Part shown: in pieces, positions 36,459 to 44,432 of the stretch
How positions within the stretch are numbered: position 1 is the stretch's first letter
How the letters are laid out: every line of letters starts with the position of its first letter
Assembly (NCBI GenBank): GCA_022508375.1
Contig: JAFLVJ010000005.1
Coordinates: 5,004 to 69,003 of the forward strand
Reading direction: 5' to 3'
Source of the DNA: Clostridiales bacterium
Lineage (GTDB): Bacteria > Bacillota > Clostridia > Christensenellales > CAG-314
DNA: 64,000 bases
Position numbers and translations under genes: made by a program
Notes under the pieces: model-generated
Told to the model about the DNA's origin: nothing
The model's database searches: none
Seen by the model: only the letters and a program-made list of their open reading frames with translations

Positions 36459-37103
36459 TTACGTGTTTCCGCCGCCTGTATTGCGTCCACCGGGATACAG
36501 CGGAAGTTCGAAGTAACCCGAGCATACTTCCTCGGAGTAGTCCTGACAGGGTGGGATTACGGCGTATCCGTAACTGGGGATGATAAGTTCCACATCCATA
36601 GTAACCTTGAGTATTGCAGTAACACAGCAGTTGATTACGAAGATGTAATACGTTACACCGTCGATTTCCTGCGTTTGACTGTATTGACCTTCGGGACTAA
36701 CCGCAGAAACGCTTGCCTCAATCGTATAGGGGATGATAGACGGTTCGGGTAAGAACATAACTACGTCGATGGGCACCGTTACAGTACCTAAGCCGCTTCC
36801 CTCCTCATTGTTGCTGTCTATGTACACTACTTCAACGGGAACAACTACGTCAGCCTGAACTCTACCGTACTTGGGACGTTCTGTTAAACGCTCCACTACG
36901 AGATTTTCAATTACTCCCTTTGTCGTGGTGCTCTTGGCGCTAACGAAACGCAACGGCGTTGCGGGATTAGCGGGATTGACATCCGTTACGTTTACGGTAA
37001 TTTGCTGTAACGTCGTTTGCTTTACACACGCATCGAAGACCTTTTTGCCTTGGATACAGATTTTTTCACTACAATTGTTGCCATCCATATTGTTGACCGG
37101 CAT
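36459..37103 (-). CDS. hypothetical protein, probably sporulation-expressed
   Basis: AGGAGG RBS; upstream ACA-17-CATACAAT sigmaK/E-like promoter; beta-rich, Cys-containing sequence. Confidence 0.75.
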   Translation of the reverse strand: MPVNNMDGNNCSEKICIQGKKVFDACVKQTTLQQITVNVTDVNPANPATPLRFVSAKSTTTKGVIENLVVERLTERPKYGRVQADVVVPVEVVYIDSNNEEGSGLGTVTVPIDVVMFLPEPSIIPYTIEASVSAVSPEGQYSQTQEIDGVTYYIFVINCCVTAILKVTMDVELIIPSYGYAVIPPCQDYSEEVCSGYFELPLYPGGRNTGGGNT

Positions 37104-38153: not shown

Positions 38154-38882
38154 TTAATAGGCGCACTCCAACAGCATTTTGTCAGCTAAGAGCGCAATAA
38201 ACTCGCCATTGGTGGGTTTTTCGGATGAATTGTAAACTTTCACGCCAAATATATTGTTTATATTTTCTATTTTACCCCTGTTCCAAGCCACTTCGATTGC
38301 ATGTCGAATTGCCCGTTCCACCTTGCTTGAGGTGGTATTGAACCGTTTGGCTATGGACGGATACAGACTTTTTGTAATGGCATTGATGATAGGCGGATTA
38401 TCCACAGCCAACTTGATGCCTTCACGCAAAAATTGATACCCCTTGATATGCGCGGGAATACCTACACTTACGAAAATACTGCTGATACGTTCATCCAAGG
38501 TTTTTTCGGAAACACTCTTTTTGCGCACTACCTTTCCGCCGAGACGCTCCCCTTCGTAAACGTTTATTATACGCTGTTCCAATACGTTGTACTCAACGGG
38601 CTTGACAAGATAATACTTTGCTCCAAGATCCAACGCTTTTATGACAAAAACTTCGCTTTTGAGTTCCGACGCAACGATAAATTTCGCGTCGTGATACTTT
38701 TCCAGCAAGGCGTAACCGTCCTCTCCGCCCATGACAAGCTCTGTTATTACAACGTCGGGCAGTTGTTCGTCTAAACACCTGCGCGCTTCCTTGCCGTCAA
38801 CGTCAAATAATACTTTAAATTCGTCGTTTTCTTCTAACTTTTCCTTCAATCCCGATTGACCTATCAAACCAATTGTTATCAC
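38154..38882 (-). CDS. spo0A: sporulation transcription factor Spo0A with degenerate receiver domain
   Basis: C-terminal GIPAHIKGYQFLR, ITKSLYP, VERAIRHAIEVAW, KPTNGEFIA; GTG start behind AAGGAG; receiver has DVVITELVM instead of D...D..MP. Confidence 0.88.
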   Translation of the reverse strand: MITIGLIGQSGLKEKLEENDEFKVLFDVDGKEARRCLDEQLPDVVITELVMGGEDGYALLEKYHDAKFIVASELKSEVFVIKALDLGAKYYLVKPVEYNVLEQRIINVYEGERLGGKVVRKKSVSEKTLDERISSIFVSVGIPAHIKGYQFLREGIKLAVDNPPIINAITKSLYPSIAKRFNTTSSKVERAIRHAIEVAWNRGKIENINNIFGVKVYNSSEKPTNGEFIALLADKMLLECAY

Positions 38883-38972
38883 AGCGAAATCTCCTTGTTA
38901 CCTTAGTGCGTTCATTATAACATTACACCGTGCAACGTATTCGGTAAGAAAATAGGGTTAAAACACAGAAAT

Positions 38973-38979
38973 TGTCGAA
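38973..38979 (+). promoter_or_regulatory. 0A box (TGTCGAA) upstream of spo0A
   Basis: Exact Spo0A consensus about 90 bp upstream of the spo0A start. Confidence 0.55.
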
Positions 38980-39070
38980 AAACATGGATAAATCGCCTCG
39001 AATTTACAATATTATGTAACATTGAATAAAAAAGAGCCGATATTTCGGCTCTGTGAATTATCTGAAAACG

Positions 39071-39466
39071 TTATTCCCCCGTACTGTCGTCATGACTGTC
39101 TTGCGGCGTATCGGCTGACTCATCCGCTTGTTCCGGCTCGGGCAGCCCCATGTCATCCACCGCTTCGCAGGTGACTTCGTCCTTGGTCGCTTGCTTGTAC
39201 TGCTTGATGTCAGGCAAGATGCAAATATAGAATGTCGCCCCGAATACCGTTATCAACGCCTTACATATTACCGTCACCACAACATTTAGGATGGGAATCC
39301 AGCTGAAAATCATGTTGATTGCCGTCAACACCATTTCCATGGCAAAGGATACAGCGTAAATGGGTACGCCCACTATAAGACAAAGCGTTTTTACGATACA
39401 GTACCACCATTTTGTACCGGTGTAATTGAATATCCAATGAAGTCTATTGAGATAGTATTCTTTCAT
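39071..39466 (-). CDS. hypothetical membrane protein
   Basis: GGAG RBS before MKEYYL; hydrophobic core, acidic tail; terminator at about 39029-39052. Confidence 0.7.
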   Translation of the reverse strand: MKEYYLNRLHWIFNYTGTKWWYCIVKTLCLIVGVPIYAVSFAMEMVLTAINMIFSWIPILNVVVTVICKALITVFGATFYICILPDIKQYKQATKDEVTCEAVDDMGLPEPEQADESADTPQDSHDDSTGE

Positions 39467-39663
39467 GATTATACTCCAATAAATTACTTGAATTTTACTA
39501 TAAATATAATTTCTTGTCAACAACTGCGTTGTGACGGTAGTACGACATGTCGAATACAATAAAAATGAAATCATTATTGAGTGAATGTTACTCATCTGAC
39601 GAGAAATACCGTCAAAACAATTGACATAAATTCAAATCGAAATTACAATAAATATACATAATA

Positions 39664-41402: not shown

Positions 41403-43415
41403 TTAGTTTCCGAAGCCAATCTTGCTTGTCTTTTTCACATTGACTACGAAATCCTTATCAGCAATTGCCCGAGTAAAGTCTTCCTTAGTCAACGTTACAT
41501 GCTTTTCGCCCGCAAGCTGAGTGCGCATTGCAGCCTTGGCGCACACTCTTTCGTAAAGGTTGCGGACATAGCGCGCATTGCTGAAATTTTTAGCTGTAAC
41601 AAAAGTTTCGTCCAGATTAAGAAAATACTGCTTGGCGTCCGCCAACATTTCTTCTGTGTAAGGTACACTGTTTTTGCACATGGAAAGGAAAATATCATAC
41701 AACTGTTGACGCGTAAAGTTGGGGAACTCAATGGTATATGGCATACGGCTTGCCAAACCTGCGTTTCCGCGAAGCAACTTGTTCATTTCGTCGGTGTAGC
41801 CTGCCATGATAATAACGAAATCGTTACGGTGATTTTCCATCTCGGCAATGAGGGTATCCAGCGCCTCTCTACCGAAGTCCTTGGTGTCGTCGTCGCCTCT
41901 ATGCAGCGAATACGCTTCGTCGATAAATAGCACCGAGCCGTACGCTTCACGACAAATGCTCAGCGTTTTGGGAGCGGTCTGTCCTATATATCTTCCGCAA
42001 AAATCTCTACCCGAATGTTCGTAGAATTCCCCCACGCGCAGGATATTTTTTTCCTTCAAAATCTTGCCGATGATACGTGCAACTGTCGTCTTGCCCGTGC
42101 CGGGATTGCCAACGAATCTCATATGCAGACAGGGTGAGCCAAGGGACGGATTTTGCTTAATCAACTCGATTTGGGAAATAATTTCCAATATGCGTTGCTT
42201 GATTGTCGCGGTACCTACCATTTTGTCCAACATTTCCATACCGCTGATATCCTCGGCAAATTCGACACTGCACAGTTTTTCGGTATCGTTTGACGTTATA
42301 ACCTTACTGTTACTACGCTCGCGCGCATTGGACAACTGTTTGTAGTACAGCAATTCGCCCACAACCTTGGATACCGTATCCTCTCCGTAGAACCGTCCGT
42401 CGCTACCCTCCTCGCGAATACGGTCGTAAAAACCCTTCCACGCAGATTTATCCATTGAAAAACCGTATTGCTCCAACAGCCTTGTGGCTATTTGCCCGAT
42501 TTGCTCCTTAGTATAGGGAGGGAAGGACAGCGCACGGATAAACAGCATGTCGTTTAGAGCACGTGCAATGTTGTTCATGATCTCCTTATCTACAAACGGA
42601 ATACGGAATACCAGTACTGAGTCTTCACACATCTGTTTCAGCACGGTCATAAATTCCTTAAACTCAACAATATTGACGTCGTTCATCCATTCGCTGATAT
42701 CTATACACACCAAATGTGGCGAACTGAGTTTGTGTTCAAGCTGTTTGATGAGTGATACTCTTGGATCCTCATTTGCGGTGCGCGCCTGAAGTTTGAGATT
42801 TATCACGTCGCGATGAAGACGGGCGATTTCCAGTTCGTTAATCAGGCTCACCAACTGTTGCAGATAGTTATCCAATCCGCTGCCGTCATTGATGGCAAAT
42901 ATATAGCGCTGCTCCATGAAAATCTTTTGCGTACCGTTGGCTTTCAGTTGCGGAGCAAGTTGAACAATTTCATGGGCAAGCGACTTGAATTCATCGCCAC
43001 CGATTATGTTATCTATTTTCACCAAAGTGCGTTGCCAGCTCTCGGATGCCGAGACGTCTATTTCATGCGACTTGGTGGCAAAAAGTCTGTCAAATTGATG
43101 CTTGATGTCATCAAGCGAATCGGTTTTCGCTTCAGTGGCAGCAATACTGTCCGTTTCCTCGCACTCCACTTTACTTTCGCTGAAATCGCTGTACTCTGTA
43201 CGCAAAAAGCTGCAAATCCTGTCCTTGACCTGTTGCGCCGAAAGATTGGATACTATTTGCAACTCTATCGAGCTATTTGTTTCGTTTGAAACAACGACTT
43301 CACTGTGCATTGAATGAGCAACGTAATCGCATATTTTTTGTATAGGAAGGATTGCGTCCATTCTGTGTTGTAACAACCAGTCCCAAGAAAACATAAATAC
43401 TACGGTCTTATTCAT
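41403..43415 (-). CDS. CbbX/SpoVK-like AAA+ ATPase with long N-terminal region
   Basis: GNPGTGKTT, YIGQTA, LFIDEAYSL, IMAGY, NARYVRN; degenerate AAA-like segment upstream. Confidence 0.85.
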   Translation of the reverse strand: MNKTVVFMFSWDWLLQHRMDAILPIQKICDYVAHSMHSEVVVSNETNSSIELQIVSNLSAQQVKDRICSFLRTEYSDFSESKVECEETDSIAATEAKTDSLDDIKHQFDRLFATKSHEIDVSASESWQRTLVKIDNIIGGDEFKSLAHEIVQLAPQLKANGTQKIFMEQRYIFAINDGSGLDNYLQQLVSLINELEIARLHRDVINLKLQARTANEDPRVSLIKQLEHKLSSPHLVCIDISEWMNDVNIVEFKEFMTVLKQMCEDSVLVFRIPFVDKEIMNNIARALNDMLFIRALSFPPYTKEQIGQIATRLLEQYGFSMDKSAWKGFYDRIREEGSDGRFYGEDTVSKVVGELLYYKQLSNARERSNSKVITSNDTEKLCSVEFAEDISGMEMLDKMVGTATIKQRILEIISQIELIKQNPSLGSPCLHMRFVGNPGTGKTTVARIIGKILKEKNILRVGEFYEHSGRDFCGRYIGQTAPKTLSICREAYGSVLFIDEAYSLHRGDDDTKDFGREALDTLIAEMENHRNDFVIIMAGYTDEMNKLLRGNAGLASRMPYTIEFPNFTRQQLYDIFLSMCKNSVPYTEEMLADAKQYFLNLDETFVTAKNFSNARYVRNLYERVCAKAAMRTQLAGEKHVTLTKEDFTRAIADKDFVVNVKKTSKIGFGN

Positions 43416-43586: not shown

Positions 43587-44432
<846 letters not shown>

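Follow-up and report, generated by a model that had tools for sequence, protein, structure and literature searches.

Introduction

Canonical Spo0A, as known from Bacillus subtilis and Geobacillus stearothermophilus (structures 1LQ1, 1FC3 and 1QMP), is a two-domain regulator, and all endospore formers are said to activate it by phosphorylating a conserved Asp, Clostridia doing so via orphan kinases (PMC11210211). Here we describe a spo0A gene whose product has Glu in place of that Asp. The gene lies on the minus strand of a 64,000-nucleotide stretch of a Clostridiales genome (GenBank assembly GCA_022508375.1, contig JAFLVJ010000005.1, positions 5,004 to 69,003), hereafter called the window.

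The window Spo0A shares with its canonical counterparts the two-domain architecture, an upstream 0A box, a Spo0A_C domain with 56-57% identity to the solved structures and a nearly identical recognition helix, orthology by tree, and a genome that carries the sigF, sigE, sigG and sigK cascade. It differs from them in its Glu acceptor, in the deletion of the acidic pair together with the first turn of helix 1, in a locus that lacks the spoIVB neighbour, and in a genome with no visible orphan kinase or phosphorelay.

Canonical receivers are built around five active-site residues, namely a DD pair, the acceptor D, T/S and K (PMC12632262). In aspartate-less receivers Glu is the commonest replacement of the acceptor (26%, PMC4395418), and it can mimic the phosphorylated state (PMC4395418; PMC12632262). 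Receivers of this Glu type, for example that of ChxR of Chlamydia trachomatis (PMC4395418; PMC3960148; PMC12632262), resemble the window protein in keeping the fold, the Lys and the T/S residue, and in having a DNA-binding output presumed to be active without phosphorylation. Their outputs are of the OmpR or NarL type, whereas the window regulator carries Spo0A_C and tops a developmental cascade. Furthermore, aspartate-less receivers usually keep the first acidic residue (65%, PMC4395418), whereas the window Spo0A has lost both.

Developmental masters with receivers independent of a cognate kinase have been described in Streptomyces, where BldM and WhiI are orphan atypical response regulators (PMC4125116). 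Their output domains and their kind of sporulation are unrelated to those of the window Spo0A, and they act via heterodimer formation.

Phosphorylation-independent alleles of Spo0A itself have reportedly been obtained in the laboratory as sad67-type receiver deletions in B. subtilis. Such alleles, and those that combine D-to-E with other mutations (cited in PMC4395418, its reference 36), indicate that a Spo0A with an altered receiver can drive its regulon without phosphorylation, as the window Spo0A would. The laboratory alleles are engineered or selected mutants, whereas the window allele is natural, genus-wide and encodes an intact receiver fold.

We found no description of a natural Asp-less Spo0A in the literature covered, with subscription journals and supplements outside that coverage. 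In the accessible text of the reviews on Asp-less and pseudo-receiver domains (PMC4395418; PMC12632262) we found no discussion of such proteins, and in that of the 2025 pseudo-receiver review (PMC12632262) 'sporulation' and Spo0A do not occur.

A receiver with Glu at the phospho-acceptor position

The spo0A open reading frame (ORF) begins with GTG and is preceded, at 8 nt, by an AAGGAG motif. The protein starts with VITIGLIGQS and its further residues, position 48 included, read ...LPDVVITELVMGGEDG... Upstream of the GTG there are just five in-frame codons before a stop, and therefore no hidden N-terminus that could supply the DD pair. The gene and its parts are as follows.

38154..38882, minus strand: spo0A coding sequence, 242 amino acids (aa) and stop, GTG start (Spo0A_C 8e-40; TIGR02875 213 bits)
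38547..38882, minus strand: receiver (pseudo-receiver) domain, residues 1-112 (PF00072; predicted local distance difference test, pLDDT, 84-95; 1QMP at a template modelling score, TM, of 0.82-0.84)
38856..38879, minus strand: beta1 and loop, ITIGLIGQ, lacking both acidic residues of the DD pair and the opening turn of helix 1 owing to a five-residue deletion (alignments; model)
38739..38741, minus strand: codon GAG for Glu48, phospho-acceptor position (alignments; invariant in 37/37 equal-length genus sequences)
38667..38669, minus strand: Ser72, the conserved T/S switch residue and first residue of the clade-specific SELKSEVF (alignment)
38601..38603, minus strand: Lys94, the conserved active-site Lys, followed by Pro95; Tyr91 stands three residues earlier (alignments)
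38502..38546, minus strand: flexible linker, residues 113-127 (pLDDT below 50)
38178..38486, minus strand: Spo0A_C DNA-binding and activation domain, residues 133-235 (Pfam; sequence match to 1LQ1 at 6e-39; Foldseek TM 0.86-0.93 and 56-57% identity to the Spo0A-C structures 1FC3 and 1LQ1)
38891..38896, minus strand: ribosome-binding site (RBS) AAGGAG, kept in the alignment of orthologous upstream regions

In Pfam, Spo0A_C (PF08769) covers residues 133-235 at 8e-40 (profile positions 1-103 of 104), and Response_reg (PF00072) covers residues 11-105 with a weak but significant match (5e-12, 46 bits against a cut-off of 30.2). With TIGR02875, the NCBIfam equivalog model for Spo0A, the protein scores 213 bits (cut-off 200), its match beginning at model position 18. 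Two residues of the recognition helix are different from those in B. subtilis Spo0A. The canonical DNA-binding domain described by an earlier reading of the stretch from its letters alone (the sequence-only reading) is thus borne out.

That reading had also placed Glu at the equivalent of D56, with a replaced beta1 DD pair, a shortened helix 1, and the Ser and KP switch residues intact; on all these points our alignments and model agree. The codon at 38741-38739 reads GAG, and four alignment sets concur on its column. In MAFFT alignments with the Spo0As of seven other families of the order, with 75 orthologues and with paralogues, E48 falls on the Asp of canonical '...LLDIIMP', and it also stands opposite the acceptor Asp in the HMMER alignment to the solved receiver 5WQ0. 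The columns of the canonical DD hold G-Q after a five-residue deletion. S72, Y91 and K94-P95 are retained, K94 being at least 90% conserved in alignment A1.

Two other aspartates were considered as displaced acceptors and rejected. D43, which the sequence-only reading had named as a candidate, falls in the column of the Asp in 'PD', the dipeptide at which beta3 starts in canonical proteins, and D55 in that of the Asp in 'DG', which precedes helix 3 there; since canonical Spo0As carry both residues as well, neither is a displaced acceptor.

An AlphaFold model built from a 58-row alignment (mean pLDDT 86.6; 84-95 over residues 1-110) predicts five strands and five helices in the receiver, that is the (beta-alpha)5 fold. 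Beta3 spans residues 44-47 in this model and E48 sits at its C-terminal end, while helix 1 is reduced to six residues, 12-17. In receivers, helix 1 is the docking surface for kinases and phosphotransferases. Among the Foldseek matches of the N-terminal domain are 1QMP, the phosphorylated receiver of Spo0A (TM 0.82-0.84, 23-24% identity), and structures 5WQ0 and 2PKX.

Thus, compared with a canonical receiver, the fold, the T/S residue after beta4 and the Lys after beta5 are present, and the acidic pair after beta1 and the phospho-acceptor Asp at the end of beta3 are missing. With a 46-bit PF00072 match and Glu48 instead of a phosphorylatable Asp, the domain belongs among the aspartate-less receivers. 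Activation through Asp phosphorylation, described as universal (PMC11210211), does not fit a protein with Glu in the acceptor column. By descent and sequence the window protein is a Spo0A and, judged from its residues, it is not a member of the functional class of phospho-activated Spo0As.

The loss extends across the genus and into the family

The window genus is probably Candidatus Fimimonas of family CAG-314. Candidatus Fimimonas corresponds to GTDB genus CAG-1435, family CAG-314, order Christensenellales (PMC8035907). NCBI taxonomy places it under Myxococcaceae, which looks like a taxonomy error; two records of metagenome-assembled genomes (MAGs) of the lineage are titled 'Corallococcus sp.' (L116 and L126).

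We asked whether the D-to-E change is clade-wide, as the sequence-only reading had proposed to check. For the genus it is: Glu and the five-residue deletion occur in 39/39 orthologues read (39 of 44 genomes having one, five being left out). All 37 equal-length sequences have Glu48, 22 of them with the codon GAA and 15 with GAG. With an invariant residue, both Glu codons and independent assemblies, the assembly error at the codon that had been named as a possible refutation is excluded.

The receiver is under purifying selection and is not decaying. By the Nei-Gojobori method on 37 sequences, omega (the ratio of nonsynonymous to synonymous substitution rates) comes to ~0.09 in the receiver and to ~0.03 in the DNA-binding domain; these are rough values, as synonymous divergence (dS) is near 2 (saturated), and 140 and 186 of 666 pairs passed the dS<3 filter.

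In the other genera of the family, the acceptor and the acidic pair vary as follows.

Genera g21, g23, g24 and g32: acceptor Glu, deletion present
Genera g26, g28, g29 and g30: acceptor Asp, same deletion present
Genus g31: acceptor Gln or His; a DD dipeptide is kept at the end of beta1, in the DD columns or one column off depending on the alignment
Genus g18: acceptor Pro, a single acid (Glu) left in the pair
Genus g19: acceptor Glu, pair D-N
Genera g20, g25 and g33: acceptor Asp, degenerate pair (Q-N, Q-E)
Genus g34: acceptor Asp, one acid only in the pair columns, Asn replacing Lys
Genus g22 (two rows read): acceptor Asp, complete quintet

To place these states we used a tree of 50 rows (IQ-TREE 'quick'; three rows with partial or degenerate receivers omitted, some paralogue branches long). 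A clade of 22 rows, with a Shimodaira-Hasegawa-like approximate likelihood ratio test (SH-aLRT) support of 97, joins the Gln/His/Pro branch with a 16-row deletion branch (SH-aLRT 90). The acidic pair is gone from all 16 rows of the deletion branch, and its acceptor is D or E only, the two being interleaved: (E,D,E,E,E), (D,D), (D,D,D,D) and (E x5). A pair missing throughout with D and E mixed indicates that the metal pocket was lost first and that D-to-E followed later, at least two times.

The 22 rows of the clade also share a beta4-alpha4 motif, (S/T)(D/E)LKSEVF, that is not found in canonical Spo0As (variants are LKGEVF in g24, LKSEAF in g18 and SKLQNEMF in L077). Phosphorylation was probably abandoned once, at the base of this clade, with the catalytic residues then decaying differently by genus.

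A single orthologous Spo0A and no orphan kinase in view

The source assembly has 1.63 Mb in 24 contigs and is 89% complete; a search of its contigs gave no second full-length spo0A, and the canonical copy elsewhere in the genome that would have undone the sequence-only reading was not found there. Across the family (82 genomes, 18 genera), 78/82 genomes have a match at E<=1e-30, and each of them has one, except G077 with two matches, both fragments. Within the genus, spo0A is found in 43/46 other genomes; those without a match are G001 (91% complete), G060 (97%) and G021 (70%).

Other families of the order often have a second Spo0A-like gene, at 31-40% identity. The tree sets these second copies apart in a clade of their own (SH-aLRT 99), and the proteins of the CAG-314-like family nest among the first-copy Spo0As. 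The window Spo0A is therefore an orthologue of Spo0A and the only full-length one in its genome. A pseudo-receiver paralogue that modulates a canonical Spo0A, one of two interpretations offered by the sequence-only reading, is rejected on these grounds: there is one full-length copy in its own genome, the family search shows none with a second, and the protein groups with the orthologues and not with the paralogue clade.

Separately, we observed a 150-aa ORF consisting of Spo0A_C alone, with a diverged recognition helix (G000:C21:96049-96501, minus strand, which is L002:1459-1911). It scores 57 bits with TIGR02875 over model positions 138-261, and 137 nt ahead of it lies a perfect 0A box. Most genus genomes have a similar ORF of ~150 aa, and such a protein could compete with Spo0A at 0A boxes.

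Following up another check proposed by the sequence-only reading, we looked for orphan kinases. Seven HATPase_c matches are present in the source genome. Only two come from HisKA+HATPase_c kinases, and each kinase gene overlaps the end of a gene for an OmpR-type regulator, with which it is paired; the remaining matches comprise GyrB, MutL, SpoIIAB, a second protein of the GyrB family (ParE-like) and a weak match of 23.5 bits, below cut-off. Receiver domains number three, Spo0A included. No orphan kinase was thus seen in this HATPase_c/HisKA search of the 89%-complete assembly, one match being below cut-off.

Genomes G004, G008, G015, G049, G051 and G052 have the same counts (6 HATPase_c matches and 3 receivers at E<=1e-6), and some other genus genomes are richer, with hybrid kinases of 900-1100 aa among their proteins. 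The excess of HATPase_c over receiver matches is 5, 5, 4, 1 and 5 in the canonical g22 and 4-5 in some Asp-less genomes, a measure made noisy by hybrid kinases and incomplete genomes.

A conserved promoter argues for autoregulation

Upstream of the gene, a terminator-like hairpin ends the preceding ORF, and therefore spo0A has its own promoter. Its elements are listed here.

38914..38922, minus strand: extended -10, TGtTATAAT (genus consensus tGTGnTAcAAT, from 36 aligned upstream regions)
38973..38979, minus strand: perfect 0A box, TTCGACA on the gene strand, 53 nt 5' of the -10 hexamer and 97 nt before the start
39033..39052, minus strand: terminator-like hairpin closing the upstream gene (hairpin search)

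The consensus of the 36 upstream regions runs TTTTCGACAA (the 0A box), ~53 nt, tGTGnTAcAAT, RBS and a GTG or ATG start. Taken alone, the perfect box that the sequence-only reading noted at 38979-38973 is not significant: 72/630 7-mers of the same composition are at least as frequent in the genome as the perfect 0A box. Across orthologous promoters it is kept, a perfect TTCGACA being found at -93 to -123 in 29/37 and within 250 nt in 31/37. Since the box is conserved in otherwise diverged DNA, it argues for a predicted autoregulation of spo0A and for an unchanged DNA specificity. A promoter consensus scan gave a single weak match (9 of 12) that overlaps the 0A box and is not above shuffles.

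Two variations on this arrangement were observed in the genus. In L047 and L048 the stretch from the 0A box to the -10 contains about five copies of CGACA, spaced 11 nt apart, and extra boxes occur upstream of spo0A at ~21 nt spacing in L023 and L028. The spoIIR gene, whose B. subtilis counterpart requires sigma-F, is also preceded by a perfect 0A box (G000:C23:26776), which lies 118 nt ahead of the ORF at C23:26894-27427.

Sporulation genes kept and missing

Matches to sporulation genes in the source genome, with scores and curated cut-offs, are given below.

spoIVA: 614, cut-off 460; above cut-off in 42/47 genus genomes
spoIIAB: 184, cut-off 135
sigF: adjoins spoIIAB, below cut-off
sigG: below cut-off
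spoIIGA: weak match, adjoins sigE
sigE: 364, cut-off 339
sigK: 282, cut-off 252
spoIIE-like: 364, below the cut-off of 491
spoIIID: 100, below the cut-off of 111.5
spoIVB: 350, cut-off 305; G000:C19:103712-104686, minus strand (L200), with one TAG within the match
spoVAD: 400, below the cut-off of 412
spoIIIAA-like: 9/9 genomes sampled
spoIIR: 9/9 genomes sampled
SigH-like sigma factor: 128, below the cut-off of 295
yqfC-yqfD: in the window, in the classic phoH-ybeY-era-recO context

The TAG in the spoIVB match could mean that the gene is broken or split, or could be an edge effect. The absence of spoIVB claimed by the sequence-only reading is true of the spo0A neighbourhood; the gene is present on another contig. 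A further claim, that the window holds intact sporulation genes, has to be qualified: the spoVD-like penicillin-binding protein, yqfC, yqfD and the SpoVK-like protein are all under curated cut-offs, and for the 'BclA-like' ORF the matching models are all of collagen-like adhesins. Sporulation was said to be retained, which stands as far as the sigma cascade is concerned and fails for the alpha/beta small acid-soluble spore proteins (SASPs) and GPR, which are missing. Overall, a sporulation-type programme is probably still run, in atypical form.

Among other genes of the window, a 670-aa protein (41406-43415, minus strand) carries an AAA domain of the SpoVK/CbbX type (243 bits, under the cut-off of 423). 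The adjoining gene (43590-44432, minus strand) encodes a 281-aa collagen-repeat protein, and these repeats are the sole basis of the 'BclA-like' label. No NCBIfam family matches the 174-aa ORF upstream of spo0A (39074-39595, minus strand) or the 214-aa ORF two genes downstream, past a TetR-family gene (36462-37103, minus strand).

Asp-less Spo0A-like proteins beyond the family

Searching 1.84 billion representatives with phmmer, we obtained 789 matches at E<=1e-30. We aligned 120 proteins of 200-300 aa out of the best 150 of these matches, 30 being excluded for length. The acceptor is Asp in 89 of the 120 and not Asp in 31. Around 22 of the 31 look like genuine full-length Spo0A-like proteins (Glu in 9, Asn in 5, Gly in 5, Ser in 2, Gln in 1), and the others are misaligned or without a receiver. 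From these alignments, Asp-less Spo0A-like proteins appear common well beyond the CAG-314-like family, amounting to ~22 of the 120 nearest metagenomic representatives aligned.

The search also returned four metagenomic proteins of 394-454 aa (P0002, P0003, P0004 and P0007) that lack a receiver and carry Spo0A_C three or four times in tandem.

Discussion

We consider it probable that the window Spo0A is a phosphorylation-independent regulator with an aspartate-less pseudo-receiver. We favour this reading because the acceptor and the metal-binding pair are lost in 39/39 genus orthologues, the receiver fold and the DNA-binding domain are under selection, no orphan kinase is seen and the sigma cascade is kept; it is the loss of the pocket and the lack of an orphan kinase that point to activity without phosphorylation. 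Phosphorylation-independent initiation, the other interpretation of the sequence-only reading, fits everything tested.

Under this model, Spo0A could not be phosphorylated by a histidine kinase, and none would be available in the genome. Glu48, perhaps held by Lys94 and Ser72, would together with the SELKSEVF motif keep the receiver in or near its active conformation. Output would be set mainly by the amount of Spo0A, through a sigma-A-type promoter and autoregulation via the 0A box, and a partner protein or ligand might tune it through the switch residues that remain. Spo0A would still drive the retained sigF/sigE/sigG/sigK developmental programme.

A number of observations weigh against a kinase-free Spo0A at the head of sporulation. 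D-to-E alone reportedly failed to activate laboratory Spo0A (cited in PMC4395418, its reference 36), and the retained Ser, Tyr and Lys could mean that a modification or an input still acts at the site. Some genus members have one or two HATPase_c matches beyond the receiver prediction (e.g. G003 and G048, 8 vs 3), and an orphan kinase could lie in the missing part of the 89%-complete genome. Perfect 0A boxes are not enriched between genes (29 of the 346 in the genome are intergenic, 8.4% vs 10.7% of the DNA, on crude ORF calls), and none precedes spoIIE or spoIIGA. The source organism is an uncultured gut bacterium. SASPs (PF00269) occur in 0/82 family genomes, GPR is above cut-off in 0/47 genus genomes with two matches at chance level, and most sporulation-gene matches fall under curated cut-offs; as GPR has been called universal in spore formers (preprint 10.1101/2022.02.25.481979), classical sporulation is not assured.

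These last points are also what a relic or repurposed Spo0A would predict, one serving a lineage without true endospores as a kinase-free factor for stationary-phase or other genes, so that loss of the phospho-site would say nothing about sporulation initiation. The genomes are reduced (1.1-2.4 Mb), and 40 non-spore-formers among 180 species encode spo0A (preprint 10.1101/2022.02.25.481979). We nevertheless regard this as unlikely: a 1.6-Mb genome keeps intact sigF, sigE, sigG, sigK, spoIIAB, spoIIGA, spoIIE-like, spoIIR, spoIIID, spoIVA, spoIVB and spoVAD, spoIVA is above cut-off in 42 of the 47 genus genomes, and a set of genes kept to this extent implies that the programme is used.

It is more improbable still that a covalent switch persists at or near the old site, be it phosphorylation or methylation of Glu48, phosphorylation of a Ser or Thr, or Asp phosphorylation in the sister genera that keep the Asp. 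Ser72, Tyr91 and Lys94 are conserved, the acceptor in the deletion clade is always D or E and never neutral, and Glu methylation has been raised for aspartate-less receivers (PMC4395418); yet the metal-binding pair is missing, helix 1 is truncated, the source genome has no unpaired kinase, and bacterial signalling via Glu phosphorylation is not known according to the same paper (PMC4395418). An artefact, be it a misassembled codon or a canonical spo0A hidden in the unassembled 11% with the window copy as a decaying duplicate, is hardly credible and already close to refuted. The 24-contig, incomplete assembly would leave room for it, but the same residue appears with both Glu codons in 39 independent assemblies, 43 of the 46 other genus genomes have exactly one copy and none a second, the promoter is conserved, and omega is low in both domains (~0.09 and ~0.03).

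For the whole CAG-314-like family of uncultured gut Clostridia we extend the phosphorylation-independent reading tentatively, at slightly less than an even chance: the family would run endospore development, or a derivative of it without SASPs and GPR, with neither phosphorelay nor sporulation kinase, its Spo0A having become kinase-free once and the dead site having then decayed in various ways.

In a genus represented by at least 44 species-level genomes, the only Spo0A appears barred from the Asp-phosphorylation route while the downstream sigma cascade is kept. The genus may thus offer a natural experiment in taking the sporulation decision without two-component signalling, and the family a dated order for the decay of a pseudo-receiver active site, pocket first and acceptor next. 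Spo0A would be added to the output types of aspartate-less regulators, and tools that infer sporulation in MAGs from the presence of spo0A alone call for caution. If the kinase-free reading is true family-wide, the textbook rule that sporulation starts with Spo0A~P would not be universal.

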